Below the pieces are notes generated by a model. It was not told the DNA's origin. It did not search any database and saw nothing but the letters and a program-made list of their open reading frames with translations. DNA of 64,000 nucleotides from Neophaeotheca triangularis (lineage: Eukaryota): NCBI GenBank assembly GCA_054600435.1, contig BAAIJX010000026.1, forward strand, positions 186,001 to 250,000, in the 5' to 3' direction. Of the stretch, positions 1,979 to 37,119 are shown piece after piece. Positions within the stretch are counted from its first letter, which is position 1; every line of letters starts with the position of its first letter. The translations under genes and the position numbers were made by a program.

Positions 1979-4900
1979 TCAACGCGGTCCCATGACGCCC
2001 CACTCCTCAACCTCCTGCGCAGGCGTAAGCGGCGGTGCGCGACCACCCCGCGAGCTGCCAGTCAACCACGCAGCATCAGGCATAGGTGGGGCGTCATCCT
2101 GGTTCATCGAATTGCCCCTCGACCTTGGTCCCGAACCGGCCCGTGGCCGCATGCCAGGCTGGGGCACCTTGCCAATGCTGTCTCTGGAGCTGACATCGGC
2201 ACCGACGCCGAGAGATTCACTGCTTATCTGCGGATTGATGGTGCGGCTGTTTTGTGTGTTGGAGCGCGACCGCATGCGAGAGTGGCGCCGCTTGGGTGTT
2301 GCGGAACCGGCAACAGCGTAGTCGTCGTCTTCCGCAACTTGCTGCGACATGGCGACAGGCGTGAAACCGTCTGCGTCAGCACCATCGCGGTCCGGCTGGC
2401 CTGGTACAAAGTCTCGCGACGACCAGCTAGGTCGGTGAGAGCGTGCGCCGTACGGTAGGTTACTCGTGCTATGAGTGCTTGCCGCACGGCTGAGACGCCT
2501 GCTGCCGGGCGTTGCGGCTGCTCCGGCGGCGCCGTCGAGTGAAAGCTTGCTTGGGTTTGCGGTAGATGCCATCTCTGCATTGAAGTCGGCATCCTCGTCT
2601 TCAATTCTTGGCTCGCGGCGTACGCCCTTGACCTCGAAACCGTGCTTTTCCTCAGCTATAGGGACGGGCTCCTGCTTGACCTTTTTCTGCTTGGGTGCGC
2701 GTGGTAGATCGGTGACGGCTCGGTCAAGATGGTCGAAGTACTTTTCACGCATGCCGTTCCACTTCTTGGGGCGGAAAGTCTCCCTATTCCTCGAGATCGA
2801 CATGGCGCTGCTGATGGCCGCGACAATGATTGCGATCAGCGTGATGATGGTCAGAATGCCTTGGATGACGATGATGACAATGCCAATGACCGTGGTGGTG
2901 ATGCGCTCGAGGTTCCACTGAATGTCAAAGGCGGCGCTCAGGCCCACTGTAGCAACTTTGCTGAAGCCCAGACAGTAGACGACCAGGACGTTCAGGCGAG
3001 TGCTCTCAAAGGGCCGAGCCCAGATCATGAATGCGAAGGCAAGAACCTCAACGACGAGAAGTCCAAACACTTGGGCGAGAGCTTGACCAGCTCCAGCTCC
3101 GTAGAAGACGCCCCGGACAAACTCGTAAGGAACCCAGAAAGCGAAGAACCACCATTTCGTGCGACGGAACCGAGCCGCCAGCCAGCCAAAGCGCTTAGTG
3201 TATGCCTCGTCGTCGTGAATGCTCCTCACATCTTGCTCGCCGTCCAGGCCTGGCTGGGCCGAATTAGAACGCTTCCAGAAAGGCATCTTGGTCTTGTCCT
3301 CCGGCTCCTGCTCGCCTTGTCCTTGCTCGTTGTGACAAGCCGGCGGGACTCGTTTTGTGCCAAACCACGGGATGACGCCCAGCAGCTTCTTACGCTCAGT
3401 CTGAAAACGCTCGGGGTTGGACTCCATGTTACCAAGGCGAATTTTGTAGAAGCAAGCGTATACGCAAGCGCCCGGTAACCCCACAAGGAAGATGATGAAC
3501 ACGATAGCTGCGACGGCGGTAACACCAGCAGAGGCAGCGTACGTGAACTGGAAAGTGGTGAGTAAGATCATCGCGAAGAATGCGATGAAGCAAGTTCGCA
3601 ATGCGACCAAAGCACTGTAACCAAGCCAGTGCGACCGGAAGTAAGCAAGGCGATCTTTGCGCAGTGCTTTAACGGCAGAGAGCCCTTCAAGAATCCATTT
3701 GAAGGCCATGGTAGCAGCGACCAGGATCACCAAGATGATCAAGAGCCAGAGAAAGCTCGTCATGAATGCATTGGATGCGCGGATCTTCTGTGGAGCGAGA
3801 GTGCCAGCAAAGCCAGAGTAGTTTCCCGGGAGTGGAAGGCCCTCCGTGACAGGTTGCCCATACCAGCCATATTGCGGAAGTCCACCCTCATCACGGCGCT
3901 CAAGCATCTGCTCTACAGCCCGAGACTGCAGGTCACTGTGTCGCGAGCCGCTAGATCCGAACTGGTAAATCTCAGTTGCAACGTCACGAACCAGAGGATG
4001 GTCCAGCATTGCTTTTGCACCACCCATTACTCCACGCTTGTAAATCTGGGAAATGTCGTACCCGCCTCCTAGACCGGACTGCGACGTGCCAGACTCGGCG
4101 GCACCGACGGAGCTCGTGTTTCCAGCATTATTGCCGATGAAGCTGTTGATGCTATCTTGCATGCTCGAGGAATAGATCATGCCTCCAGCCCACGCGAAGT
4201 TGCTCCAGAAAGCAGGAAGCACAGATGGCCAGTTTAGCGAAAGCGCTCCCGTGAAAAAGATGTGCTGCCACACTGCGAACACAACTCCCACCGACAACGA
4301 ATGGGCGTGGTGCAAACGCATCGTTGGTATCGCCTGGCCATACACTGCAGTGGCGAAAGAAGCGAGGAGTGTGATAAGGGTGAAGACGCCCAGCACTGTG
4401 CCTACGGCTGCTGGGTGCGAGAAAGACGCTCCGTTCGTCACTACCGCAGTGTAGCAGCCTATCTCGGATTCGGTAGCGTTGGAGAAGATGCGAAGAATGG
4501 CTTGTCCTTCGAAATCGGGAATGCTGAGGGCAATTTCTGGAATGGCGGCCACATCAGATTCGGCGACGGGGATGATACCGTTTGCACTGATGGGTATACT
4601 ATCATTGACCGGACAAAGACTGAGAGTATTGTTAGCAAGACAGTACGCAGACAATAGAGCACGGTAGTAGTATCTCACCTGGCAATATTGGCGGAGCAAG
4701 GGTCAAAATTGAGGTCAAACCTGGCTTCACCATAGGCAAACACGCCAATGTACATCATCAAGCTCTCGTTGGTCAAGGCAGACGTGCCCTCAAGGTGGAA
4801 TAGTACCGTCATGTTGTCCTTGTAGTACGCAGCATCGAAGCGAGTGACGTTGATCGCACTTCCTCCCAAGCAGTCCCCAAACTCGTCTGTGTACAGGGAA

Positions 4901-5115
4901 GGCGTCCTCGCATCGTCCAGGTACAAGAGTTCGCCGTCGGAAGCGGTGTAAGTAATCCATCTTGTATCATCGCCCTCTTCGACTTCGACCTCGACATCAG
5001 TCGTTGATGGGTTAGGGCTGTTAACGGTTTCCGTTGCAGTTTGAGCGAATGCGGGCACAATGAGAGCGAGCAGTGCTAGCGCGGCCAACAAGGCCATGTG
5101 AATCCGCGTGATCAT
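1979..5115 (-). CDS. FLC/TRP-like integral membrane protein (TRP_N ML-like domain plus multi-TM TRP domain)
   Basis: ORFs 4675-5211 and 1979-4699 joined by GT-AG intron 4620-4678 (GCTAAC branch). Has a signal peptide, FDPCSANIASLCP, WSNFAWAGGMI and many TM helices. Start may be 5115 or 5097. Confidence 0.85.
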
Positions 5116-6792
5116 GGCGAATCGGAATGTGACGGTAGGATGATGGTAGCGAGCGAGGGGGGTATCAGATTTGTGGCCGGTATGTGCAGCGCGCAACGCA
5201 CGTAGGCACACGCTGAAGGCTGCTTTCTTGCCGCAGGCGGCTGCTGGCGAGCGAGCCGGGGAGAAGTCGTGGCGGTCGAGGGTGATGTGATGGAGGGCGA
5301 AAGAGGACGGGTACTAGTATTCAGTGTCCCGCAACGGCAGCGGCTGAGGTTGCCTTGGTGCCCAGTTGGATACCTCGTGCCTGCTCTTTCTGGGGGGAGG
5401 GGTCTTCCTCTTCCTCTTGGAGCGTGCCGAGTGTGGTATTCGCTAGGAGGCTAGCAGGGGGTTCAACGCGAGAGAAGTCGTGACAGCATGCTTCCAACTC
5501 TCGCTGTACAACTCGCAGCTTGTGACTGTCCGAGTCGAAGAGTGAATGGTAGGGAAAGACGTAGGATAAGGGGGGGAAGAGCAGTCAACAAAGGAACGAG
5601 GGGGTCATTGAGTGCAGTAGCACGAGTAACTCAGACCTAGTAGTACCTCCAGTAAGGAAGGCAGACTGATGAGATCTTGGACCATGGAAAGCCAAGCCAG
5701 AACCTTGTGCAGGTAGGTGCGCTTGGTGCGCTAGGACGACGATCCGGCCGGATGACGAGAGAGAGTTCTACTACAACGACCCGTTCACCTCTCAGTACTA
5801 CATAGTACTACTAGGTAGGCAGTATGTACCTGCTACTAGGTACTCTGTCATTCACAATCAATAATGGGCTACTACCACATACATTATTACTTATTAGTCT
5901 ACAACTTTTATCACTGCTAGCCTACAAAAGCTAGCTACTCTCGTTTATACCGGTAATTGTTGTGCATCTTGACGTGGGCGATCATGGCGTACCTCGTAGT
6001 CTGCCTGGCCGCGCCCTTAGCCCTAAGTTATTCAAGCAAGCCCCAAAGCCACTTGCATTCATCATCTGCCTTCCAAGCATAAGAAAACATAGGAGGGATC
6101 GCGAGTCTTGACATCAACTGAGGTGGTCCGGCCCAGCACCAATCATATGCCAGTGTTCGCATCTTCCACGGCTGGCCGAAACGCTCGACTTGGCAACTTT
6201 TGATAGTCGACAGCGAAAGGCTAATTTTAAAGCGTCATACCCGACGACTCCGGAAAGTTTGACAGAAGGTGGACTGGGCTTCATCTCAGATCTAGGTATC
6301 GTCGTCCTCGTGGAAGTATGTAAGCATAGCAGACTCCTCAAACCGCCCGCTTATTGGGCCAAGCATGCCTTACCTCCCTCCTAACACCTGTTTGCTGCTA
6401 CTACTGATTCCTGAGTCCTGACACCACCGGCAATCTACAACTAAGCGCTACCTACAGTACTCTAGGTGTAAGCGCCACTTTGACGCCCGCCCGCCCGCCT
6501 CGCCGCCCAACCCTCGCATCCGGATGCGAGTCTCACCCCTCACACACCGTCCCACGCACCATCAAAAGTGTACAACAGCCATCGACATGCAGGAACGGCA
6601 CTCCGCGGCACCGAGCAACAAGCCTCCAGTCTGATGCCACCACATCGAGCCGCAAGCACAAGCAGGCTGTAGGTATGCATCGCTGCCGAGTGCCACCGAC
6701 GTATGGCTTCCTCTCTCCACCTCTTCCCATGTGCCATGTGGTTTCCACGAAACCTTCCTTGCCTTTAGCCCTTCTCGCCCTCTCTGCTTCCA

Positions 6793-9922: not shown

Positions 9923-11208
9923 CTCACTGGCTGGCCTCAAGGCGGTTGTTGGGTGGTGATCTGGAAGAGCTCGCTTGACTGCTTCAAACACTTAGCATTG
10001 CCCGTCTGGACAGTATTGAGGGTGGCAGATGTGTGACTACACGTGTCCCGCAAAGGAGAACCTGAAATGAACGGTATAGGCATTTTGTGGTAAAGTAGCT
10101 TTGAGAGAAGCTGTAAGGATTTTCTTTAAAAGTGCATCTTTGCCCGGGAGTGGGGCTTTTCTTCGGGTCGGATGCGATGCCGGCAGAGCGGACAAAGTCG
10201 GACAGCTGCAGTCCGATCAGAGCGACTTCATCCCATCCATGGATATTTGAGCTGTCAACTACGTACGTACGTAAACGTCCGTGGTGGACCTACTGGACCC
10301 ATTTGAAGCCTCCCCTAGAAGACGAGATGCATTGCGCTCTGCCCACGTTTTCCGCTTCCGAGCACGAAACCCTGGAAGCCTGCCCGTGGCGCGAGAAAGC
10401 CACTAAAGTTGTAAAGAGTGATTGACTGAGCTTATGAGCAGTATCGAAAATGACAGCTCCCTAGTCCTCGCTGGCGGATGCCGGCGCATGTCTTGTGCGT
10501 GGCTCTCATCTCGCCTCATGTACGCAGGATGGACCTAACGTCGCGTGGAAGCAGGATTGGCCGTTCTCCTTGTGCCTCACTTTCAATATTGCGCTCCCTG
10601 GGCGGTGGCAGTGAGATGGAGCCCTCATCTTCGTAATACGCGGAACACATACGACCCGCCGGTACAGCTCTACTGCTCCATTGGACTCGAGTGAAGAACG
10701 GGCAACTGAGCAGCACTGTCTTAAATACGCACGAACATGGAAGTACTTTGTGAAGGCCTACTGGGAGAGCGTGAAGATGTGGCTTTAGTGTTGCGCAGAC
10801 TTTGCGATCCCATTCCGCTGCCTTCTATCACTGCTGGTAGGGTCGTTGCTTCTTTCTTGAGCCTTCCTTGCCTAGTAACAGCGCGCACGGACCCTTCGCT
10901 TACTTTACTGCCTTGTCGCTCTCCCTTAGACTCCTCTCCTTTCGCACTCACTACACCTAAAACCACAACACCACAACGCCGCTTGCTCGAGCTTCGCTTC
11001 GCTTGACCACTACCCATTTACTTTTCTCAGCCTAACAAGACCTCTCTTGCTGTTGTTAGGGCAGCGAGGACAGAACTACAGTGAAGGAATCAACAGCACC
11101 TAGTATTTACGCATCTGGTGCATTGGTGAAGGGAAAAGGTAAGATAACACATCGTCACGAACATTTCGACATAGCTATAGGCTCACTCATCTGGACAGAT
11201 CCTTCAAC

Positions 11209-13404
11209 ATGTCGAACACCATCCCTAAAGACTCTGTTGTGACCATCGAGATTGATGACGGCCCCCCTCCCCTCGTCCCTCTAAACTTCGAGGATGACGA
11301 GCTGGATGAGCTAGCGGACGATACGCTCCGTAACCTCACCCCTGGCGATGATCGGGACATTTACGAAACGCAAGTTCCCGACTTCACTTTCGTCGACACT
11401 GTCGTCGACGACTTCAAAGTCCGACCCGGCGAGACTGTTGAGCTGCTCGATGGTGACTTCTTGCGCATCGTCTACATCGTGCGGGTACCTTCAACAAATA
11501 GCAGTCAGCCATTCACAACTGGTTTCAAAGGAATCCTTATGCGCCGGTTCAAACATGTCCACGACATGCTTCCTAAAAAACTCAACGAGCTATGTATGGT
11601 GCTTAAAGCTCCCATTGGCTCGAAGGATGTCACCGCTCATAACTGTTTGGTCACACGAGAACAACATGAGGTTGTGTGCCGCCGAAACGTCGTCATTACC
11701 AACGCCATGTTCCCCTTACACAGCTTCCGTGAGGGGGATGTTTCGCCTTCACTCCGAGAGGTGATTTACGACGCCGATAGTCGCAAGCGTAAGGTTTACT
11801 GGAAGCCAAATGAGGTCGAAGAGACAGGAAAACTGGTTTGCCGATTTCGTTACACGGAGGAGTATGACATTTCGCGTGGCAAGGTTGTTGCCGAGAGCCT
11901 TATGCGAGTCACAGAAGCGGACTGTGATGCTGGTAAGGGTGTCGAAGACATCCGCCTTCGCTTAATATGGACGAACGATGATCTGGACTCTCTCAAGCAG
12001 CGTCAGGCTAAAGTTGACCTCAATTTGGTTCGCGATTCCGATTCGGAACAAACTCCCATGTGTGGCCTAGGAAAAAGGCGCCGTGAAGATACGGTCGTGA
12101 TCGATCTCACCAACGAGCCTGATACCGAGTCATCGAGGCGAAGAAGGGGCTCACGGATGGTCCAAACGCATGTTCAGAGGTACGGATCCTCTCCCGTCAC
12201 AGTCTCTGAGTCATCATCTTCGCCAACTCTCGGTACCTCTGGACGCATGCGCGACTTGAATCTAGGTGCCTCTCGCTCTCTCACATCGTCATCAACGTCG
12301 CCATGCGCCTCTACCTCTAACCGAAGCCATTCCTCGACATCGTCGTCACCCGCCACCACCATCGATCTTGAACCAGGCATAGCACCGGAGCCATACACGT
12401 ATGGCGACATCTGCTGCGGAGCTGGTGGAACTGCGATGGGTGCAGCCATGGCGGGCTTCAAAGTTCAGTTCGGAGTCGATAACTGGGCCCCTGCCATCGA
12501 GACTTTTGAGCTCAACTTTGGCAACGGAATCGAAAAGGATCTCAACACTTTCTGTATCATGGAAACTGCTCGCCTGACCGGTGGCGACATCGTAACGGTG
12601 CTGCACATTTCTTTCCCTTGCCAGGCGCATAGCCACCTCAACCAGGGAACTAACCCGGAGCGCGACCTCGAGAATATCGCTACCGGGTATTCAGTCGACC
12701 TTCTTCTGAAGAAACACAAGCCCCGTGCCGTCACTTTCGAGCAGACGCCAGGCATCCTCACGAAGCGCGGCGGTGTCCATTACCGTGCCCTTGTGAACCA
12801 ACTCACGTCGGCCGGCTACAGCCTCCGATGGAGGGTCATGAATCTTGCGGAGCACGGCAACGCTCAAGCTCGCAAGCGCCTGATAATCATCGCTTCTTGG
12901 TAAGATAGCCTCTCCCCCACCCCTAACTCGTCTCTATGCTAACACCCAACCAGCCCAGGCGAGCCCGTCCCTCAACTTCCCACACCAACCCACGGCCCAG
13001 CTTCCGGCCTGAGACCCTTAACAACCATCCACCAAGCCCTCCAACCACTCACCACGTTCGTGATCCGAGATACTCCGGAGCACATGAAGCAATTCACCCC
13101 CAAATCTCAACACAGCTACAACCGGCACGTGCCACTTCGCGGTCTCATCACCACCAGCGGCGGTGACAGCGACCTCCATCCCACGGGAACGCGCTCTTTT
13201 AATGTACAAGAGCTGGCACTGCTGCAGGGCTTTTCCATCGGCCACCAGTTCGCTAGAGCCACTAAGACGGATCTGCGCAAGATGATCGGCAATGCGGTTC
13301 CCACTGTGTTCGCTGAGCAGCTTTTCACGCAAATCAGGAAGAGTTTGGAGGAGAGTGATCGGGTAGGGGCTTTGTGGGATGGCTTAGTGAAATTGGACGA
13401 GTAG
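11209..13404 (+). CDS. RID1: RID/Masc1-family C5 cytosine DNA methyltransferase-like protein
   Basis: Motif I GDICCGAGG, motif IV ISFPCQ, motif VI FEQT (RID/Masc1 diagnostic in place of ENV), motif VIII QARKRL, motif X IGNAVP. Intron 12900-12953 joins ORFs 11209-12903 and 13060-13404 (IIASCPGE). Confidence 0.9.
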
Positions 13405-27587: not shown

Positions 27588-27706
27588 ACATACGACCACA
27601 GCTCAGTGAATCTAAGGCATCCCGTCCGCTCTGCCATATTCAAGCACTGAAGCGGGTGACTAGTACTACGGTGGGTGACCACGTGGGAATCCCACCTGTT
27701 GTATGT
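27588..27706 (+). rRNA. Dispersed 5S rRNA gene
   Basis: 119 nt; 5' ACATACGACC pairs with 3' GTTGTATGT; conserved ATCCCGTCCGCTCT, CTAGTACT, GGGTGACC and GAATCC elements; followed by oligo-T. Confidence 0.95.
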
Positions 27707-27725
27707 TTTTTGCTTTTTCTTTTTT
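27706..27725 (+). terminator. RNA polymerase III oligo-T terminator
   Basis: TTTTTTGCTTTTTCTTTTTT immediately after the 5S gene. Confidence 0.8.
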
Positions 27726-28287: not shown

Positions 28288-31200
28288 TCAAGCATCTCGT
28301 CCAAAAACACTCTGCCGCTCACTAAACTCCAAACCCAAATGCAACCTCCGCATAGCCCGCTCATCCCCAAAGACCACCGACTTCCCCAGCAACGTCCAGC
28401 CTCCCCCCAACTTCTGCTCTCTAGGCTCCAACAACCACAACCGCGCCAGATGCATATACTCATCATCCAACAGCGCCCTGGGCACCGCAGCCCTAACCTC
28501 ACCCCCCTCACTCCTAGCCGGCGGAGCAAAAGAAACAACCTTCCCGCCATTGCTCGCGTCAAAAACACAAACGGGCCTCCACTCCTCCCGAACCGTGACC
28601 TGCCGCTGCGGCATCCCCCTCACAACCAGAAAATTAACAAAATCCAGCAGAAACCCCGCAGCGTCTTTACTCCAGTGTTCCACGGGCCAACCACCACGAG
28701 GATGGTGCGTGTTACGCAAAGCCACGAGTAAGTAGCCCGCGGCCGCGAGATCCTGTTTCCAGCGACTGACGCCGTAGCGCTGGCAAATGGACTCCATCCA
28801 GTCTGGTCCGCACTCGAAAACACAGGTGAGGGTTTGAGCGTAGACTTCGCGCATGGAGCCGAAGAGGCCGTTGCAGGTTGCGTCGTTGATGAGGTAGCGG
28901 TGGCGGTTGCGGCCGACTTTGTGGTGCAGACAGAAGTCTAGGAAAGTTTGGGCGAGGGCCATGGTGGAGGGGAGGTCTGTCGGGTGTTTGAGGATAGTTT
29001 GAGTTAAGAAGTTGAGGTCGATGAGGAGGGTGTGGGAGGGTGGGGAGGGGATGAAAGAGGCGGAGATGAGCGTGTTGGGTGCGAAGCGTCTGAGGGTTTT
29101 GTAGTTGTTCAGGCCGGCGTCGACGTTTGTCGGTTCGAGCAGCCAGCTTGGGACGCGTTCGTGGGAGGGGTCTTGGGGGTATGGTGCGGACATGGGATGG
29201 CCGACCGAACAGAGTGCGCCAGGGTCGCGGGCGGCGAGCGCTAGCTGCATCAGCATGTAGAAACATTCGGATGTGCTGACGTTTGTTTGAGGGTTGCGAA
29301 TGGCAGGTGCTAACGTCAGACCGCATTCCATGGTGTTGAGGATGATTGACATTTTGTCCTTTTTAGCGGCGGCTTCCCTGAGCTCTTCGGAGATGGACGG
29401 GTCACCACCAGCGCCCATTGCAAAAACTTCTGCAATGACGGTGGTAAAGTTGCCGTGGTTGTTACGAGGAACTACAGACCCAGGCCGTGAGCGGTCTTGG
29501 AAAAATGCGTTCAAAGCCGGAATCAGCATGACCACGTCGAGATCGGACGGTACTTCAGCGGCGAGCGCAAGTAGATGTGCGAGCCATTTGCCGGTGAATC
29601 TGACGAAGGCGGAATTGCCAGTCGGCGCCGATTTCTCGCAAGCCACCAGAAACACATGGTCTTTGGCAAGCCGCATTTCGTGCCTACACCACGCACGCTT
29701 GAACCACGACGACTGCAACAATTTGTGCAGCACTTGATAGATCTCTTCATGGTTCTCGAGATATGGCGGGCTCTGACCTCGGAAAGGCTTGTCGTGAGCG
29801 AGAGGCGCGACACGATTGTACTCCACTAGGTGATCCTCGAGAATGGTCGATTCGTGTGGCGTCAGCAGCACGTCGAGCGCAACCACAACCACGCGAGCGC
29901 TGCGATACACCATCTCCATGGCAGACATTGCTAGAGTCTTCTCGTCTTCAGAAGCCTGGTCGATGCAGATTTGGTCGACCCAAAGGCCTTCGCTTTCCGA
30001 CCTGCGTTCGTCGAGTACAGCTTGAAACATGATAGGATCCAGGGGGAGAGTGTACGCTTGTCCTTGCTTCCTCACCAATATATTCCGACGATACGACAAG
30101 GCGATGAAAGATCTCTGAGGCGCCAGGATATTGGCCGTGCGTATCAGCCTGAATTTGAAACTGTCCATGATATCCGGTTTGACGGCGAAGCTCTGGGCCG
30201 CGAGTTGATCCATCTTGGCAAGCTTCTCGAGTAGAGTGTCGGGTGGGAGCTCGGCGTCCGGTTCGACAGCGAGCATGTCACGCTTCTCTAGGGGAGTGCA
30301 GAGCTGAACTTTGTCGAAAGGGATGATCTGATGCTGCGGCACGCCTGGGGTAATGATTTTGTAGAGAGGGCGTGGTATGGTCATCCTCGCTTCGGTGTCT
30401 GAGATTCCTTCTGGAGGTTCATCAGCAGGCTGTGACACGGGGAGAGGCCAATCGGAAGGTGGAGGTTGAATTTCCCATCGGTTGAATCTGCGTAATACGG
30501 ACATCAACTCCACCGCCGTGCATGTGTTGACGGGTTTTGGTGACGGTGACCGACTCGATTCTGGGGTTGTGTCTGCCATAGAGTCAATCGGCGAGTGTCC
30601 ATCAAACCCCGTAGGTCGCTTGACGAGGAACCTGAACTCTGGTGTTCCCTGATCTTCTTGAGTCGGCCCTGGCTTGAGACGGTTCCTGGGCACTGGAGTC
30701 TTAATGGTGGGAGGTTCAGAAGAAGGTCTATTGCGAGCACCTCGTTCCCTTCTCAGCCTGTTCTTCCTCAGTAAAGTCTCCCATCTTTGACGTCCGGAGC
30801 TGGATCCATTGTCGCTCTCTTCAGTGCTCGTCTGGTCCCCACTGATGTCGCTGCTGTAGCCTCGTTTATGCTTAGGGCGAGCCGTCGGACTAGTAGGGGA
30901 CTCAGCCTGCAGATGCGTGTTCCGCCCGCCTTGTCGAAAAGGGTCACCGGTGGATAGAAACTGCTTGTGGCTCACTGTACCCGACCTACGTGGACGCCTG
31001 GGCGAGATTTGGCGAAAGGACTTGACGGCCATGTGAATGCTCTGTACGAGACGCATACGTGTAGTGGTATCTCGTGGTTGTTGCTGAAAATACTCCCGGC
31101 GCCACTTGGCTTCCTCATAGCCTTCCCTCGCCTCCTCCAAGTCTTCCTCGGCTTCCAGCTTCGCTATGACAGCATCGCTGTACTGGCCATATGCTTCGAT

Positions 31201-31716
31201 CTCACGTCGCCGCAGTTTATCAAGCTGCTTGCGACGATCAGCCGCGGCGTTGAAGCCTGTGCTACCTCGCGAGGATCCACTGTCTCGACTCTTGGATCGG
31301 TATATGGTATTGGACGTTTCAAGAGTTTGTCCTCCTCCGTTACGGATGCCACTCAAGGACGCCGCCTGCTCTTCACGACCTCTTCGAGTATTGGGATATA
31401 GATCGTGCCCGTCTTCATCCACAGATGACTCGTCCGAGCTCGAGTCATGGCCCAGATGCTTGAAGACCTTGTTGTGCACCTCCTCCTGCTGCTGTTGTAA
31501 CAAAACGATTTCATGATATCGTCGCCTCTTGTCTGGGTTTCCTAAGATTTCCCAAGCGTGCTGAATGCGGTTGAAGAGGTCAGCATTCCCTTGGATGCGA
31601 TTCGGGTGGTATTTGAAAGCTAATTGGTAATATCGAGCCTTGATAGCTGCCTGAGTGGAGTTCCTCGAGAGGTTCAGGGCGTGGTAGGGATCGGGAGGAA
31701 TGCGAGTCGGATCCAT
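28288..31716 (-). CDS. DnaJ-domain / HET-domain fusion protein
   Basis: 1142-aa ORF. N-terminal J domain DPYHALNL...IKARYYQLAFKYHPNR...FNRIQHAWEILGNPDKRRRY; coiled coil and disordered linker; HET motifs FIALSY, LWVDQICIDQ, MEMVYRSARVVVVAL, WFKRAWCRHE at about 29670-30115. Confidence 0.9.
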   Translation of the reverse strand: MDPTRIPPDPYHALNLSRNSTQAAIKARYYQLAFKYHPNRIQGNADLFNRIQHAWEILGNPDKRRRYHEIVLLQQQQEEVHNKVFKHLGHDSSSDESSVDEDGHDLYPNTRRGREEQAASLSGIRNGGGQTLETSNTIYRSKSRDSGSSRGSTGFNAAADRRKQLDKLRRREIEAYGQYSDAVIAKLEAEEDLEEAREGYEEAKWRREYFQQQPRDTTTRMRLVQSIHMAVKSFRQISPRRPRRSGTVSHKQFLSTGDPFRQGGRNTHLQAESPTSPTARPKHKRGYSSDISGDQTSTEESDNGSSSGRQRWETLLRKNRLRRERGARNRPSSEPPTIKTPVPRNRLKPGPTQEDQGTPEFRFLVKRPTGFDGHSPIDSMADTTPESSRSPSPKPVNTCTAVELMSVLRRFNRWEIQPPPSDWPLPVSQPADEPPEGISDTEARMTIPRPLYKIITPGVPQHQIIPFDKVQLCTPLEKRDMLAVEPDAELPPDTLLEKLAKMDQLAAQSFAVKPDIMDSFKFRLIRTANILAPQRSFIALSYRRNILVRKQGQAYTLPLDPIMFQAVLDERRSESEGLWVDQICIDQASEDEKTLAMSAMEMVYRSARVVVVALDVLLTPHESTILEDHLVEYNRVAPLAHDKPFRGQSPPYLENHEEIYQVLHKLLQSSWFKRAWCRHEMRLAKDHVFLVACEKSAPTGNSAFVRFTGKWLAHLLALAAEVPSDLDVVMLIPALNAFFQDRSRPGSVVPRNNHGNFTTVIAEVFAMGAGGDPSISEELREAAAKKDKMSIILNTMECGLTLAPAIRNPQTNVSTSECFYMLMQLALAARDPGALCSVGHPMSAPYPQDPSHERVPSWLLEPTNVDAGLNNYKTLRRFAPNTLISASFIPSPPSHTLLIDLNFLTQTILKHPTDLPSTMALAQTFLDFCLHHKVGRNRHRYLINDATCNGLFGSMREVYAQTLTCVFECGPDWMESICQRYGVSRWKQDLAAAGYLLVALRNTHHPRGGWPVEHWSKDAAGFLLDFVNFLVVRGMPQRQVTVREEWRPVCVFDASNGGKVVSFAPPARSEGGEVRAAVPRALLDDEYMHLARLWLLEPREQKLGGGWTLLGKSVVFGDERAMRRLHLGLEFSERQSVFGRDA

Positions 31717-32278
31717 TGGCCGTGATAGAAAGGAGGTTGTTGTAGATTGACGGCTGTCGACCTTGGGATAGCTTTATTGCGAGCAAACAGCATGGTCCTT
31801 TGTTGTAGACAATGAGCAAACACAAGCACCGTGCTCACGGTCTTGCATATGCTTTGGGGGCCAATCGACATGGGTCTACCTCACACGACGACATCGAATA
31901 CCGTCTTTGGTGTTGCAAACGGGGGGTGTAAGCATGCAAGCATGGCATGGTAAGCTGCTCCGCCACACCTTGGAGCTGTGAATAGTAGCGCGGAAGCTTT
32001 CCCGCCAGCAAGCGAGGCGAGACAGCTGAGGTGTTGTTGGTCTGAGCACCGACATTGGCCGACCATTCCAGAGCTCGGTGTGTCTACAGCGTATGTACAC
32101 ATTACATATGCCTCGTCAACAATGTCTGAAAGCTTCTGTCTGGGAATCGTGGTACCAGGAATAGCAGTAAAGAGCTCAACGCTTCCCCGAATGTTGCACT
32201 CAAGACACGGCGTGGGCATAACGTTCCAGTACAGCTCAGCATTGCCACTAGTAAGTACATACTACAAAGAACATGCTC

Positions 32279-33870
32279 TCACCATGTACCACTAGCGCTC
32301 CTGGTCCGCAACTTCAGCTCCTTCTCGACATCCTGCAGACCTTGCTCATGCTTGACCCGATGTCGTTGTTGACTGAACTGAAACCACCATAACCAAGCAA
32401 CTATGACGAAACCCGTCAAAGGAATTGTCACGGCAAAGTAAACCCAGACGTAAGACGAGACTAGAGGGCCCTCGTCGCCGTCCCAATTAAACACACCCTC
32501 CATGCCAAAGAAGGACGCGACTGCGGTACCAGGTAGGAAGACCAGCGTGAGCATAGCGATCGTCTTCATCGCCGCACTGTCCTCCCTGGTCTCGTTGGCA
32601 ACTTGCGCCGTGGCTTTTGCAATCTCGATGTTGAGCAGATTGTCTCTTCGAGCTTCCTCTGCAATCTTGCGAGAGCTCTTGGCGAGCTCGATGTTGGTCT
32701 GCATATCTCTCTGCGCGATGAAGTTGAAGATTGTCTTCGATTGGCCCTTGACGCGTTTCGGAATCACATCCAGATCCAGCTTGACCTGCTCGGAGTACCT
32801 GATTTGCTGCTCGATCTTCTCGCGCATCTCTTCGATGTAGCTTGTGCCACCTTCCCAGAGACTCTGCCAGAGACGGTGATATTCGTCGAGGTACTTTAAA
32901 AGGTTTGCGGCCAGCTCTAGCTCGAAATTTGATCGTCTTTGCAGTCGTAGATGCTCGAGGTTCATTCGATTCAGCAGCTTGTAGTCGCCATTGTCTGCTA
33001 GTGAAATATCGCCATCTGCTATTCGCTCCTCCGTCTCAGTTAGCTCCCGTGAAAGTAAATGTACCTGCGAGATGGTATCGTTGACGTGTTGGTCCAAGAT
33101 GACAAATGGTAGGATGGCAAAGTCGCGAGGCACTTTTGGATGGCGATTCAGATAAGCTTGGCCGGCGAGCAAATTGTCTAGCGTGAAATTCGAATCTGTC
33201 ACGAAGACTCCACCGCAATACGACCTCTCTCGATTGACTAATGAGAGTGAACAGAAGGAGCCGCCGTCTCTGGGAGTCTGAAGCAGGAAAGCTGTCCGAG
33301 TCAGCTAAAGCATGGTTATCCAAGCGAAAACGAACGTACTGAGAACACCATGAGATGTGAGCGCAGCAGAACCGCCACCGTCTCTTCGCCACAGGTGCTC
33401 ATATTCATCAGATACCCATCGCTGCTGGCGGAGGACGTTGAGGAATTCCTCCCGTATTGGCAGAGCCGTCTCATCTACTTTGGCGATCCGAGATGCCCGT
33501 CTCGCATGCTGCTGAGGCCTCTGGACAACTCTAATGACTAGTCAATACAGGTCGAGATCCTTAGTTTCGGGGACCTTACAAGAGCTTGAAACGAGCGGTA
33601 CTGCTATCATAGCTTCGGTCGATCTGTACCGAAGTTTAGCAAAACGGATCTGTAGAGGCGATATAGGACTGGCCATGCCTTGTGATGGGTCAGAAAATCC
33701 TCTTGCGCCAGGTCGCGTAAAGGCCGAGTCTTGATAGTGGCCGGGAAGCGCCAATTGCTATGCTAAGGCCTTTTTAGTTTTCACGAAGATGTACTGGAGT
33801 GAGACACTAGATGTGAGTTTACCTCGAGCTTGCTGTCGCTGATCTCGAATCTCTGAAGACTGGGATCCAT
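32279..33870 (-). CDS. CorA-like protein (helical region plus two C-terminal TM helices)
   Basis: C-terminal DSAAMKTIAMLTLVFLPGTAVASFFGM...WVYFAVTIPLT typical of fungal CorA-like proteins. Proposed exons 33823-33870, 33679-33762, 33580-33623, 33340-33530, 32279-33291 (459 aa); exon 2/3 structure uncertain. Confidence 0.8.
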
Positions 33871-34560
33871 CTTGCTGCCCTACCTAAATGTGCCGATGCG
33901 AGGCCTTGCGGTGTGTGTATGCTAACCTACCGCAGCGCGAGAAAAGATGTGAGCCGCATTGGGAAGGCATGGCCAGGCTATGGTCTCACATATGGGACTC
34001 TAGTACTACGACTGTAGTACATAACTACACCGCATGCGCTGGACGATATGAGTGCATATGCAGTAGGCGAAAGTGGCCCACTCTTATTACAGGCGCTAGG
34101 ACATATTGGTCTAGGCTCGCTTCTTGTACAACCGACCTCATCCCGTCAAGCCCGTTTCTTTCTTCCTTGAAAAACAACCTGGAATAATGTAAGTTACCTG
34201 CGAAAGGTATCCTCCTGGCTTTCTGTCTTGACGGAATACCTAAAGCAAACCGTTTCCTATGTTACTGGCAGATGACACCAAAGTCGTGACATGAGGACCG
34301 GGTATACCACAATCCAACTCGAAATCGTGACCACCGGCCGGGGCTTGTGGCTGTGTCGACTTCGCCCCCTTTTCGCTTTGACTGGGCGGCCAGGCATTCT
34401 ACGACTGGCCCTTCAGTGGCGTTGGTTGATCTCGCGCGCCTACAACGCACGATTTGCGCTGGGACACGTCGGATAAACTTGGCGACTATATCGTCGCTAT
34501 GAACTGCAACGGCCCTTCATATCACATCAGTCTCGACGGCATTGTCCGCCGCTCCGATAG

Positions 34561-37119
34561 ATGATTTCACACACGTTCTTGGTTGCCGGAGACGTCTCCT
34601 GCGACTATCTCATCTATTCCATGTCACCATACCCAACTCTGCAGGGTTTCAGACATTCCTCGGAATCTGAATCTACGCAGCTCGCTGTCAGACTCGGCGG
34701 CGCTTCTTTGGTGGCGCAGCTACTCACCGCTGGCGCTTCACAATGGGGGTTTGAAGTCAAAGAGCCCTGTGTTGATCGGTCAAATTCTTGCCTCCGAGAT
34801 ACTGCGTCCTCTATCATTGATCTTCACTGGAATTACTCCAAGCAAGCACAGCCAGTTTTTCAAGTCACTGGCCAGCGTCACGTGGATAAGACTTGTGTCT
34901 GGCATTCACCACGATTAGATCACTCGTCACCAGCTTCACCAAACACAGTTGTGATTACAGGCTCCAGTGACTCCTTCGAGGACGTCGAGCCGGCGTTGGA
35001 TTTCTTGCAACGTGCGCAGCCGACTTACATCGTCCACCACATGACTCGACCTCTAGCTATTGGACGTTTGTGGGATCTCATCAGAAATGGACCCTTGACG
35101 AGCAACAAAGTGCCCGTGCCCGAGAACCTTGTCGTTATCGTCGACGCCGACGACCTACGAAGTGAAGGTATCACCTTGAGCGAGTCGTTATCTTGGGAAG
35201 CCACAGCAGAGGATTTTGTTCGAAATTTGGGATCAAACGGCCGGCTTGATACTCTTGCGACTTGCCCCAACCTCGTCGTTAGATTTGGCTCACAAGGAGT
35301 GATTCACCACCAGGGACGCGCCGCCTACGATCCAGTACTGTACTTCAACCCTAGGGAGACCGAAGTGAGCAGGAATCAACATTCGGCCAGGAAGTGTGTC
35401 ATTGGGTCTACCCCTGCGTTTGTTGCGGGCTTCTCTATGGGATTTGCAGACTCTGGGCCGCCAAGTAGCGATCGAGGCATCAAAACAGGCCTTGCAGTAG
35501 CGCAGCGATTCGTCGAATTGGGGTTCGTTCCCAACCCGCAAAACCACTCACCCGAGTACCCTGCAGCACAAGTCATGGATGGCTCAATGGACGACAATCG
35601 CTTCACAAGCGTTCGGATACCGTCAGCTCGCATCAGCTCGGGAGACAGCTGGTCGATATTCGAGGCCGTCACAGGTGACCCAGCAGAGATTGCCCGCCAA
35701 ATTGTTGTGCAAGGCGAAGAAAAGACGCTCGCGCAATGTCCAATCACGCGATACGGTGAACTCAGCAGTATCGACCGTACGGAGCAAGAGAATCTCGGAG
35801 CAGTCTCTGCAATCGTGCTAGAACGAATAGCCTCCCAAATCCCTCAGCCAACGTGTATCGGTGTGTTCGGACCGCCAGGGTCAGGGAAGAAGTTCATGAC
35901 GGCCAACCTTGTGAAGCATTTTGGAGCCGATACTAGCTTCGAGCACTTGACAGTGGACTGCCACACACTTGAAGCACAAAGGTTGATTGATATTTGGCAT
36001 ACGATTCGGGACAACACCGTCCTTGGGATACACACTGCTGTCTCTTTTGCAGGCTTTGAGGCTTTGCTTGCCTCTGATGGCCCCCTGATGAATGACATTA
36101 CCAGAGTCATGCGAGACGGTACATTCTCCGATCAAGGTCAGGCACGGAGTACTGGGCCCGCGATCCTGTTTCTCCTCGTCGACCAAAACACGCCGCCTTC
36201 AGATGCTGTCCCAACCCCTTCGCGCACGACATTCGCAGAAACGCCAGTGGTAGACGACTCCCGAATAGTGAATTCACTCCACGGCATCATCCGCACGAGC
36301 GGCCCCAATGAGCAAGCAGAGAACGACCGCATGTTCCCCGTAAGGCGTGCTATAGTCATTCGACGCCTACTCCTCCAACACCACCCCCACCTCAGAATCA
36401 ACGGCAATATCAACATCGACGAAGCCGTCCTCCACGCCCTGCTCCTCGTACCACGCTACAAACACGGCAACCGATCCCTATCCAAAATCATCAGCACCAG
36501 CCGCCTCTCCGGCCGCACCAAATTCGACGTCTCCGCCCTCCCCCCCGAAGAGCAAATCCAACTCCACGTCGACGGCAAAACCTTCATGTCCTACCTGCGC
36601 GCCCCAAAGCTCCCACCCGCCCTCCGCGAAACTCTAGCCATGGGCATGTACGAAGTCTACAAAACACAACGCCACGCCATGGCCACAGCGACCGAGCGCG
36701 AGCAGCTCGCCACCGACCACTCCATCTGCGACTGGGACGACCTAGCCGGCGAGCTGAAAGAATCCACGCGCGCGCAAGCCGACGACATCCCCCGCAAACT
36801 GCGCGCGATTGGGTGTTTTATGCTCAACGAGGACCGCTCGGCGCCGCTGGTGCGCGTGCGCGCTTTCGAGCCCGCCGACCTGTTGATGTTGAGCGAGATG
36901 GAGCACGAGCGGTTCAATGCCGAGAGATTGCAGCGGCAGTGGAGGATGGGTCCCCGCGCGCCCAGGCAGCGGACTACGCCGTTTCTCGTCCCCTGGAGGG
37001 ATTTGGAGCAGAAGTGGAAGGATGTTGATACGGTGATGGTCGAGGTTGTGCCGAGGATTTTGGACGGTGCTGGGTGGAGGATTTATAAGATGCAGGATAG
37101 TGGGAAGGCGAATGGGTGA
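34561..37119 (+). CDS. Multi-domain protein: PfkB/ribokinase-like N-terminus, P-loop NTPase-like domain, C-terminal RyR (ryanodine receptor repeat) domain
   Basis: 852-aa ORF. FLVAGDVSCD...GGASLV N-terminus; IGVFGPPGSGK; YKHGNRSL; RyR motifs WDDL..ELKESTR, LSEMEHERFNAER..QW..G, PFLVPWRDL...KDVD. The PfkB-like assignment is the weakest. Confidence 0.8.
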   Translation: MISHTFLVAGDVSCDYLIYSMSPYPTLQGFRHSSESESTQLAVRLGGASLVAQLLTAGASQWGFEVKEPCVDRSNSCLRDTASSIIDLHWNYSKQAQPVFQVTGQRHVDKTCVWHSPRLDHSSPASPNTVVITGSSDSFEDVEPALDFLQRAQPTYIVHHMTRPLAIGRLWDLIRNGPLTSNKVPVPENLVVIVDADDLRSEGITLSESLSWEATAEDFVRNLGSNGRLDTLATCPNLVVRFGSQGVIHHQGRAAYDPVLYFNPRETEVSRNQHSARKCVIGSTPAFVAGFSMGFADSGPPSSDRGIKTGLAVAQRFVELGFVPNPQNHSPEYPAAQVMDGSMDDNRFTSVRIPSARISSGDSWSIFEAVTGDPAEIARQIVVQGEEKTLAQCPITRYGELSSIDRTEQENLGAVSAIVLERIASQIPQPTCIGVFGPPGSGKKFMTANLVKHFGADTSFEHLTVDCHTLEAQRLIDIWHTIRDNTVLGIHTAVSFAGFEALLASDGPLMNDITRVMRDGTFSDQGQARSTGPAILFLLVDQNTPPSDAVPTPSRTTFAETPVVDDSRIVNSLHGIIRTSGPNEQAENDRMFPVRRAIVIRRLLLQHHPHLRINGNINIDEAVLHALLLVPRYKHGNRSLSKIISTSRLSGRTKFDVSALPPEEQIQLHVDGKTFMSYLRAPKLPPALRETLAMGMYEVYKTQRHAMATATEREQLATDHSICDWDDLAGELKESTRAQADDIPRKLRAIGCFMLNEDRSAPLVRVRAFEPADLLMLSEMEHERFNAERLQRQWRMGPRAPRQRTTPFLVPWRDLEQKWKDVDTVMVEVVPRILDGAGWRIYKMQDSGKANG

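Follow-up and report, generated by a model that had tools for sequence, protein, structure and literature searches.

Three adjacent genes of the fungus Neophaeotheca triangularis are the subject of this analysis. They lie at 28288..37119 of a 64,000-nt stretch of its genome (contig BAAIJX010000026.1, positions 186,001-250,000; this whole stretch is referred to here as the window), and encode a protein in which a J-like domain is joined to a HET domain (J-HET), a CorA-like membrane protein, and a protein with a ribokinase-fold domain, an AAA-type P-loop domain and a RyR domain (hereafter, the RyR protein). Judging from gene order in other fungi, the trio is linked beyond chance or local synteny, and with middling confidence we read it as one conserved functional module in which a nucleotide signal would be passed to a membrane channel, in a manner that recalls Thoeris. 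The core of this module would be a sensor protein of bacterial type together with a pentameric membrane channel of the CorA superfamily without the GMN filter, which the HET protein would join in Mycosphaerellales, and the whole would be a fixed and conserved part of the genome, serving innate or stress signaling, rather than a polymorphic allorecognition locus.

Results

The three genes

The list of open reading frames (ORFs) of the window holds three long ones in this region, at 28288..31773 (-), 32279..33304 (-) and 34561..37119 (+), from which the following gene models were derived.

28288..31716, minus strand: J-HET gene, single exon, with its start ATG at 31716 within the ORF 28288..31773; 1142 amino acids plus stop
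32279..33870, minus strand: CorA-like gene, 5 exons, 462 amino acids; the ORF 32279..33304 contains the last exon
33870-33823, 33762-33670, 33623-33580, 33530-33340 and 33291-32279, minus strand: exons of the CorA-like gene, from GT..AG intron chaining
33871..34560, no strand: divergent intergenic region, 690 bp between the CorA-like start (33870) and the RyR-protein start (34561)
34561..37119, plus strand: RyR-protein gene, single exon, 852 amino acids plus stop

The exon chain of the CorA-like gene is an exact match to a 462-amino-acid NCBI protein of N. triangularis (P0123), and 563 bp separate the CorA-like stop from the J-HET start. The 690-bp region is presumed to be a promoter shared by the CorA-like and RyR-protein genes. 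A sequence-only reading of this DNA had already described three genes with these spacings and strands inside otherwise ordinary DNA, all of which agrees with our results, and had reported altered motifs in each of them (HPN for HPD, GME for GMN, and degenerate Walker motifs), which were indeed all found in the window. Its domain assignments also held up: those of the J-HET protein, and the RyR domain of the RyR protein, by Pfam matches above the cut-offs, the P-loop by a profile match, and the CorA-like and PfkB-like calls by fold, as detailed below.

Linkage among fungi

Searches with each of the three proteins retrieved orthologs of all three across Mycosphaerellales and neighboring orders. 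Measured against the proteins of named species, identity is 50-57% (RyR protein), 59-71% (CorA-like protein) and 38-46% (J-HET). Locus tags, which are indirect evidence of linkage and are given here in the order RyR / CorA / J-HET, place the genes near one another in many of these species.

Saxophila, LTR77_007358/59/60: trio, tags consecutive
Meristemomyces, LTR62_000105/104/103 and LTR08_000419/20/21: trio
Vermiconidia, LTR37_009269/67/66: trio, tags near-consecutive
Acrodontium, R9X50_00197700/197800/198100: trio
Fungal contig filed under Quercus suber, CFP56_73789/88/80: trio
Fulvia 03893/03891, Meristemomyces LTR85 009472/70, Recurvomyces 009019/18 and Peltaster 002569/70: pairs
Ramularia 09226/27, Oleoguttula 002128/27, Elasticomyces 026611/10 and Acidomyces 153566/67: pairs
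Cladosporium fusiforme, Q7P37_009278/77: pair, CorA-like and J-HET genes

More direct evidence came from 65 metagenome loci that surround RyR-protein relatives, against which the ORFs of the window and the family profiles were compared. The whole trio is present in the window's order in three of them (L082, L091 and L094), and none of the window's 26 other ORFs of at least 150 amino acids matches any of the three; their flanks hold instead genes for a catalase, an adaptin-binding protein, Chs7, an NRPS-like protein, an acyl-CoA synthetase and an anthrone oxygenase. The sequence-only reading had proposed to ask whether the trio stays together while its flanks change, and in these loci it does. 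Among the 12 close loci with at least 1.3 kb of upstream sequence, the CorA-like gene lies head-to-head with the RyR gene in five (L082, L091, L093, L094 and L095), and the head-to-head pair is kept in L099 and L104 as well. A divergent intergenic region of 0.5-1 kb is kept in 8 loci. A k-mer search of eight such regions, that is, window 33871-34560 and the matching regions of the seven loci just named, found the 9-mer GCATGGCCA, on either strand, in 4 of the 8, against a maximum of 3 in 100 shuffles, which is a marginal hint of a common promoter element.

In distant lineages, whose RyR proteins share 34-40% identity with that of the window, a CorA-like relative (29-47% identity) is still the immediate neighbor. 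The two genes are head-to-head in a Glonium/Cenococcum-like locus (L099) and in an Acephala-like one (L104), and convergent, with the CorA-like gene directly behind the RyR gene, in L111, L115, L118 and L122, from the clade nearest an Aspergillus desertorum protein; in Lepidopterella both genes are found on a contig of 12,887 bp. No CorA-like partner was seen in L108, L110 and L114 on the single side that could be judged. Because the pair has been retained through a change in orientation, its persistence is hard to explain without selection for linkage. This two-gene core occurs in at least four lineages. A HET gene follows the CorA-like gene in L111 and L122 too, encoding an N-terminal HET domain and a fruit-body lectin; the two HET proteins are 75% identical, which points to one lineage, and match the HET of the window only weakly. 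The three-gene module put forward in the sequence-only reading therefore stands as far as the linkage of the trio is concerned, with the qualification that the HET partner is narrower in distribution and that the pair of RyR-protein and CorA-like genes is the wider core. A second, partial RyR-domain ORF was also observed in L118 (3007-3705, minus strand; Pfam RyR E 1.6e-13), about 1.8 kb upstream of the full RyR-protein gene, and may be a fragment of a duplicate.

The RyR protein

A search for homologs of the RyR protein returned 133 relatives, and the AlphaFold2 model of the 852-residue protein, built on 71 aligned relatives, reached a predicted local distance difference test score (pLDDT) of 87 and a predicted template modeling score of 0.84. 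Three domains were recognized, with the following features.

34561..35745, plus strand: ribokinase/PfkB-fold domain, residues 1 to about 395; model residues 4-360 in the fold
35746..36495, plus strand: AAA-type P-loop domain; PDB profile to Mpa/ARC, E 6e-4
35869-35892, plus strand: Walker A, GPPGSGKK
36037-36060, plus strand: AVSFAGFE at the Walker B position, where homologs read hhhFDEFD
36889..37083, plus strand: RyR (R12-type) domain; Pfam PF02026, E 2.1e-6, 28.3 bits, just above the cut-off of 27.4

The N-terminal domain is recognizable by fold, as neither Pfam PfkB, at E up to 0.1, nor PDB sequence profiles gave a match to it. In the model it resembles 3ie7 and 2awd (Foldseek, E 3e-8) and the pseudouridine kinase 7c1z (VIA, Z 19.6, root-mean-square deviation (rmsd) 5.3 Å over 282 residues). 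At what we take to be the expected place of the GAGD-type catalytic motif of PfkB the family reads G[LM]T[SA]AF, and the domain is probably a ligand-binding one rather than a kinase, to judge from the model.

The central region is related to AAA domains in sequence and fold, with Foldseek matches to ClpA and NtrX and with PF00004 recorded on bacterial relatives, but it does not show the classical AAA+ Walker A and B motifs. While the Walker A Lys is invariant in the 71 aligned rows, the residue that follows is S or T in 32 of the 39 distant and prokaryotic rows versus K, R or H in 30 of the 32 Mycosphaerellales-like ones. Similarly, the Walker B pair is D (37/39) and E (32/39) in the former set, E (27/32) and N (30/32) in the latter, and A/G in the window. 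Since the Walker motifs are degenerate and the protein is otherwise strongly conserved, the RyR protein of the window's fungal lineage would appear to be kept with an AAA domain that is predicted to be ATPase-dead.

The RyR domain is also matched by a PDB profile to the RyR1 repeat 6uhi (E 1.5e-12) and matches 3nrt. In two 2026 preprints, RyR-domain proteins of phages are described as binding 2'/3' cyclic ADP-ribose (2'/3'cADPR) and cADPR at nM affinity, or as cleaving them (PMC13232231; 10.64898/2026.06.04.730250). The binding residues are H75, W78, H100 and D117 in one phage protein (PMC13232231) and H129, W132, H154 and D171 in a Pectobacterium phage protein, for which the same finding is given and which also binds cADPR (10.64898/2026.06.04.730250). 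Our family shares PF02026 with the phage proteins RyDEP and RyR Tad, and the positions that correspond by spacing to three of the pocket residues (the first His, the aromatic one at +3 and Asp) appear conserved in it, the candidate ligand residues being H782 (69 of 71 rows), an aromatic at 785 (70/71; F785 here) and D823 (68/71). The phage proteins, however, are small dimeric sponges or glycosidases that defeat immunity, whereas here the RyR domain is the C-terminus of a large host protein with ribokinase-fold and AAA domains.

The CorA-like protein

From its N- to its C-terminus, the CorA-like protein consists of an alpha/beta domain, a long stalk helix and a pair of membrane helices.

32507-32569 and 32381-32452, minus strand: membrane helices
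32498-32506, minus strand: GME in place of GMN, at the end of the first membrane helix

By sequence profile its relationship to CorA is faint. The last exon scores 13.1 bits against Pfam CorA PF01544 (E 0.059), below the cut-off of 27, the full 462-residue protein has no match to that family, and a PDB sequence-profile search gave none for the CorA-like family, while the Zymoseptoria ortholog reaches 27.2 bits. The AlphaFold2 model (pLDDT 76), however, matches CorA 8tmj with a Foldseek E of 8e-7 (probability 1.0, about 450 columns) and, by VIA, 8zak with Z 16.1 (rmsd 3.4 Å, 236 residues) and 8tmj with Z 15.9, and its Foldseek matches are CorA, ZntB and Mrs2 structures and little else. On this model the CorA fold of the protein (CorA/MIT superfamily) is confirmed, and an Atlas search places it among Ascomycota clusters labeled 'CorA-like'. 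As in CorA, Mrs2 and ZntB channels, the fold comprises a cytosolic domain, a stalk and two membrane helices; unlike in those channels, GMN is absent, and the N-terminal domain, very well conserved across 19 orthologs, is specific to the fungal family. The GME reported by the sequence-only reading is correct for the window and does not extend to the family, as the same 19 orthologs read [GS]M[EDNT] at this position. From this variability, the family as a whole would have lost the magnesium filter.

Neither PADLOC nor NCBIfam contains a family to which the RyR protein or the CorA-like protein could be assigned. A complex prediction with CorA-like residues 1-375 and RyR-protein residues 395-852 scored 0.00 in a run without controls, and no verdict is drawn from it.

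The J-HET protein

J-HET begins with a J-like domain, continues through a long low-complexity and coiled linker into a HET domain, and ends in a conserved stretch of about 450 amino acids that matches no known family.

31516..31692, minus strand: J-like domain; Pfam PF00226 DnaJ, E 7.5e-15, 55.2 bits (cut-off 27.8)
31600-31608, minus strand: HPN in place of HPD, in the J-like domain
29956-29982, minus strand: HET motif WVDQICIDQ
29677..30102, minus strand: HET domain; Pfam PF06985, E 5.4e-16, 59.7 bits (cut-off 22.5)
29665-29691, minus strand: HET motif WCRHEMRLA

Nearly all of the 98 relatives retrieved with J-HET have both J and HET domains, and its tail falls, in the Atlas search, among unnamed or HET clusters. 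The N-terminus resembles Hsp40 co-chaperones in the strength of its J-domain match, and NCBIfam DnaJ models match it partially, but it differs from them in reading HPN for HPD in nearly all orthologs. An Asp change in the HPD of DnaJ abolishes Hsp70 stimulation. Since H37, P38 and N39 are each nearly invariant (at least 90% of rows) in an alignment of 28 relatives, this 'broken' J motif must be old and maintained, and on sequence grounds the domain is likely J-like rather than that of a standard Hsp40 co-chaperone.

The HET assignment rests on the profile match together with the conserved motifs, among which ALSYRR, also present in the window, W.DQI.I and F.RAWCRHEMRL are invariant or nearly so in the same alignment. 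In this respect J-HET is like HET-E/D/R, TOL, PIN-C and HET-6. It differs from these proteins in having no NACHT/WD40 or other NLR part, in carrying HET mid-protein behind a J-like domain, in being a conserved ortholog that is not polymorphic between two strains, and in its linkage to CorA-like and RyR-domain genes.

Prokaryotic relatives of the RyR protein

Full-length homologs of the RyR protein, with ribokinase fold, AAA and RyR domains (26-55% identity) and with intact Walker motifs, were found in at least 395 prokaryotic loci from many phyla, archaea included, and the neighbors of 80 kept loci were analyzed. Within about 600 bp, these 80 loci hold 141 ORFs; Pfam was run on 138 of them, the three longer than 1600 amino acids being left out. 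TIR_2 was matched by 15 of the 138 (14 loci), DUF4062 was found in 6 loci, and SLATT_1 and RelA/SpoT-TPR in 2 loci each; NACHT/STAND-TPR proteins are near the homolog in several loci. A further BLAST cluster of neighbors, from 16 loci, often starts 18-40 nt behind the RyR-protein homolog and shows an N-terminal GxTGHR...GADR...WDG...GGT pattern, with or without a four-helix SLATT part. We take this domain to be SLOG-like; PADLOC and NCBIfam assigned these neighbors no family apart from weak SLATT matches.

Profiles built from these same prokaryotic neighbors were matched at different distances from the homolog as follows.

Less than 1 kb: TIR 15 of 192 ORFs, SLOG-like 11 of 192
1-3 kb: TIR 6 of 186, SLOG-like 2 of 186
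3-6 kb: TIR 3 of 244, SLOG-like 2 of 244
6-10 kb: TIR 4 of 314, SLOG-like 0 of 314

A TIR or SLOG gene lies within 3 kb in 26 of the 80 loci. None of the 26 is in a clostridial clade of 18 rows, such genes are missing as well from the Acetobacteraceae loci L112 and L119, and in L106 and L131 a TIR gene is directly upstream of the homolog. The comparison with Thoeris made in the sequence-only reading thus gains a concrete basis, in that the homologs are enriched beside TIR and SLOG/SLATT genes and RyR domains of phages act on cADPR isomers made by TIR proteins. Relatives of the CorA-like protein or of J-HET were absent from the 80 prokaryotic loci, as searched with tblastn and family hidden Markov models.

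In a FastTree phylogeny of 77 rows, the 22 fungal ones form a single clade with SH-like support of 100. Its nearest rows are two Acetobacteraceae proteins, the other 53 prokaryotic rows are on the other side, and the stem of Mycosphaerellales is long (0.71). The tree was rooted at its midpoint only and the direction of transfer is read from the nesting, which makes one old transfer of the RyR-protein gene from a bacterium to a fungus probable.

Some of these prokaryotic loci deserve mention in their own right. A small stand-alone RyR ORF (Pfam E ~1e-34) lies beside the ribokinase-AAA-RyR gene at L017:6730-7104, L049:14513-15001 and L050:9670-9954, and could be a free RyR partner or the product of a split gene. 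In Methanosarcina, a neighbor with DUF4062 and SIR2_2 (L044:8198-9712, minus strand) has a PADLOC match to ThsA, and RelA/SpoT and TPR neighbors at L074:12704-14767 (plus strand) and L023:17700-19484 (minus strand) match the candidate system PDC-S33. The homologs of a Hungatella and a Paenibacillaceae metagenome-assembled genome (L040 and L041, 10001-12523 in each) are near-identical (branches 0.011 and 0.004) and share the same TetR and flavodoxin-like neighbors, which suggests a recent transfer or a binning error.

Comparison of two strains

A second strain was available as contigs of DNA run X2, under the same species label, which cover all 20 kb compared (30 bins). Between these two strains, differences in the trio amount to 1.3% for the J-HET gene, 1.8% for the CorA-like gene and 1.0% for the RyR gene, compared to 2.3%, 1.3% and 1.6% in the upstream flank and 1.0% and 2.3% in the downstream one, and there is no difference in presence or absence of the trio. 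The high allelic divergence or presence/absence polymorphism of a heterokaryon-incompatibility (het) locus is therefore not seen between the two. The locus is not hypervariable between these strains, the trio showing no excess over its flanks. In a more distant relative, short CorA-like and RyR pieces lie 4.6 kb apart on one contig.

Surroundings of the trio in the window

The genes around the trio are ordinary ones. Pfam identifies Sel1-repeat, ERCC4, kinase and C5 methylase genes in the upstream flank, and Kre9/KNH, GH5, eRF1-like, ILVD, KDEL receptor and ALDH genes in the downstream one. The C-5 cytosine DNA methylase gene (11143-13401, plus strand) comprises two ORFs, probably with one intron between them, and the gene at 1982-5313 (minus strand) encodes a fungal ion channel of the TRP-like kind that includes an ML-like domain; both are ordinary. 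The Sel1-repeat gene is separated from the J-HET 3' end by a dispersed 5S rRNA gene (27588-27707, plus strand; Rfam RF00001, 85.8 bits), which accounts for a spike in read depth (3788 against ~110) and for many loose contig ends at that place. A tRNA gene was considered as the source of the spike and rejected, as ARAGORN found no tRNA there.

Discussion

If the three genes do act together, the following scheme could be envisioned. On some trigger, the HET protein would consume NAD+ and/or make a nucleotide derived from ADP-ribose, which the RyR and/or ribokinase-fold domains of the sensor would bind. With its AAA domain as the oligomerization part, the sensor would then change its assembly state and open or regulate the CorA-like channel, and the outcome would be ion flux, growth arrest or cell death. 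The sensor might instead degrade or buffer the signal, in the manner of the phage RyR enzymes. A more specific version, in which HET makes a cADPR-type signal from NAD+, the RyR-domain protein is its receptor and the CorA-family channel is the executioner or output of a fungal Thoeris-like pathway, is offered tentatively, as we consider it somewhat unlikely in all its parts.

One preprint describes type VII Thoeris as operons of TIR and SLATT genes with a cADPR signal, and type III as having SLOG effectors (10.64898/2025.12.03.692087). The likeness to these systems lies in the proposed parts, namely an enzyme of the TIR class, a protein that senses a nucleotide and an output at the membrane, in the operons that prokaryotic relatives of the RyR protein form with TIR and SLOG/SLATT genes, and in the class of signal, suggested here by the known ligands of the RyR domain. 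There are differences as well, as ours is a eukaryote, HET replaces the canonical TIR, a CorA-like channel replaces SLATT or SIR2, and a ribokinase-AAA-RyR protein, unmatched in PADLOC and NCBIfam, is no described component of Thoeris. The comparison draws on gene neighborhoods, those of the homologs in prokaryotes and of the trio in fungi. RyR, CorA and HET all go unmentioned in an eLife 2020 survey of NTP-dependent conflict systems. As far as our literature searches reach, the fungal trio is new to print, as the sequence-only reading had also supposed, and no published description of it or of the ribokinase-AAA-RyR family was found, although supplements of bioRxiv preprints may list the prokaryotic family as a candidate effector.

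Several of our results weigh against a single module of this kind. The steps from HET to a nucleotide, to its sensing or removal by the RyR protein, and to the CorA-like output are inferred. According to a 2025 review, HET is a distant relative of TIR and is sufficient for cell death, with its activity and structure still undetermined (PMC12881547). In our hands the J-HET family compared with 16 neighboring bacterial TIR domains gave an hhalign probability of 0.25, which is not significant, with only the segment of the conserved Glu aligned, and the link between HET and TIR therefore rests on the literature. A HET partner was seen in only two fungal lineages, and none of the ORFs scanned in L104, over 10 kb to either side, or in L099, over 10 kb on its CorA-like side, encodes a HET domain. 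Ascomycota carry many HET genes, so that one additional lineage with HET is weak support. Concerning the sensor, both Walker motifs are degenerate in the window's lineage, and where the phage proteins have their phosphate-binding His our family reads T or S, a His being found in 1 of 71 rows; the phage pocket (H, W+3, H+25, D+42) was mapped onto H782, F785, T806 and D823 by spacing only, which makes this correspondence inferred as well. Ordinary metabolic genes surround the homologs both in L112 and L119, which are the two Acetobacteraceae loci closest to the fungi, and in the clostridial clade of 18 rows, and the strain differences of 1.0-1.8% in the trio against 1.0-2.3% in its flanks would fit any conserved gene.

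In addition, the RyR gene has no adjacent CorA-like gene in 7 of the 12 close loci (L084, L085, L086, L088, L090, L096 and L102). Six of these have their best matches, at 86-96% identity, in the Cladosporium protein P0023 or, for L084 and L085, in P0059, while for L096 the identity to P0023 is only 63%; the genes upstream, including eIF3 zeta, are the same in L084 as in L086. We read all seven as one Cladosporium-like lineage. In Cladosporium fusiforme the CorA-like and J-HET genes are still adjacent by their tags, and in L088 the 3' end of the CorA-like gene is 9.6 kb upstream of the RyR gene, so the trio in this lineage is loosened rather than lost. As to the makeup of these loci, the ~9.6 kb between the two genes of L088 (1554-2618 and surroundings) hold a cytochrome P450 gene and other ORFs, and a three-gene block that includes eIF3 zeta is found on either side of the RyR gene in L084, L086 and L087, which points to a local inversion.

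These limits make it worth asking how much of the pattern could be explained otherwise. It could be that only two of the genes belong together, with the RyR protein regulating the CorA-like channel in metabolite- or nucleotide-gated ion homeostasis, no role in conflict or cell death, and J-HET as a syntenic bystander. The pair is in fact far more widely conserved than its HET partner, all three genes are conserved orthologs without excess polymorphism, the clostridial and Acetobacteraceae homologs sit among housekeeping genes, and a ribokinase fold suggests a sugar or nucleoside as ligand. We nonetheless hold this to be unlikely, because in Cladosporium the RyR gene has moved away from CorA-like and J-HET genes that are still neighbors (Q7P37_009278/77), L111 and L122 have next to the pair a HET gene of a second and unrelated architecture, the channel has lost the GMN filter, and prokaryotic relatives are enriched beside TIR, SLOG and SLATT genes. 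Mere inherited synteny, that is, three unrelated genes with no common function that have yet to separate, is less probable again. Most of the evidence for adjacency comes from one order and its neighbors, and the cluster has loosened in Cladosporium-like fungi without loss of genes; on the other hand, each of the trio loci examined (the window, L082, L091 and L094) has flanks of its own, the pair persists at 29-40% protein identity and in two orientations, which requires rearrangement with retention, and 8 loci preserve a divergent intergenic region of 0.5-1 kb.

The remaining explanation, a classical het locus in which HET kills upon meeting a non-self allele of a linked partner, would be suggested by HET being found in many het genes and by het loci often being linked gene pairs, as stated in the 2025 review (PMC12881547). 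The same source states, however, that most HET genes are not het genes, the genes described here are conserved across an order at 40-71% identity, and the two strains show neither a presence/absence difference nor an excess of divergence in the trio (1.0-1.8%) over its flanks (1.0-2.3%). Since polymorphism is not in excess between the two strains, we do not regard this as a classical allorecognition locus, and give that explanation very little credence. We therefore retain, with the middling confidence stated above, a conserved module of sensor and channel that a HET protein joins in Mycosphaerellales.

No cell-death domain is commoner in filamentous fungi than HET, and the presence of a HET gene beside one for a dedicated RyR-domain protein provides a concrete and inexpensive hypothesis on HET biochemistry. 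Our analysis also provides evidence that an immune-type sensor probably passed, long ago, from a bacterium to a fungus, and adds to the field of TIR signaling a host-encoded RyR-domain family that is widespread in prokaryotes and absent from PADLOC and NCBIfam. If the more specific pathway outlined above, with a cADPR-type signal made by HET, is real, it would provide the first biochemical function for HET domains and the first host-side (non-phage) RyR-domain signal receptor in a eukaryote outside animals, and the long-debated regulation of animal ryanodine receptors by cADPR would be tied to an ancient immune sensor module.

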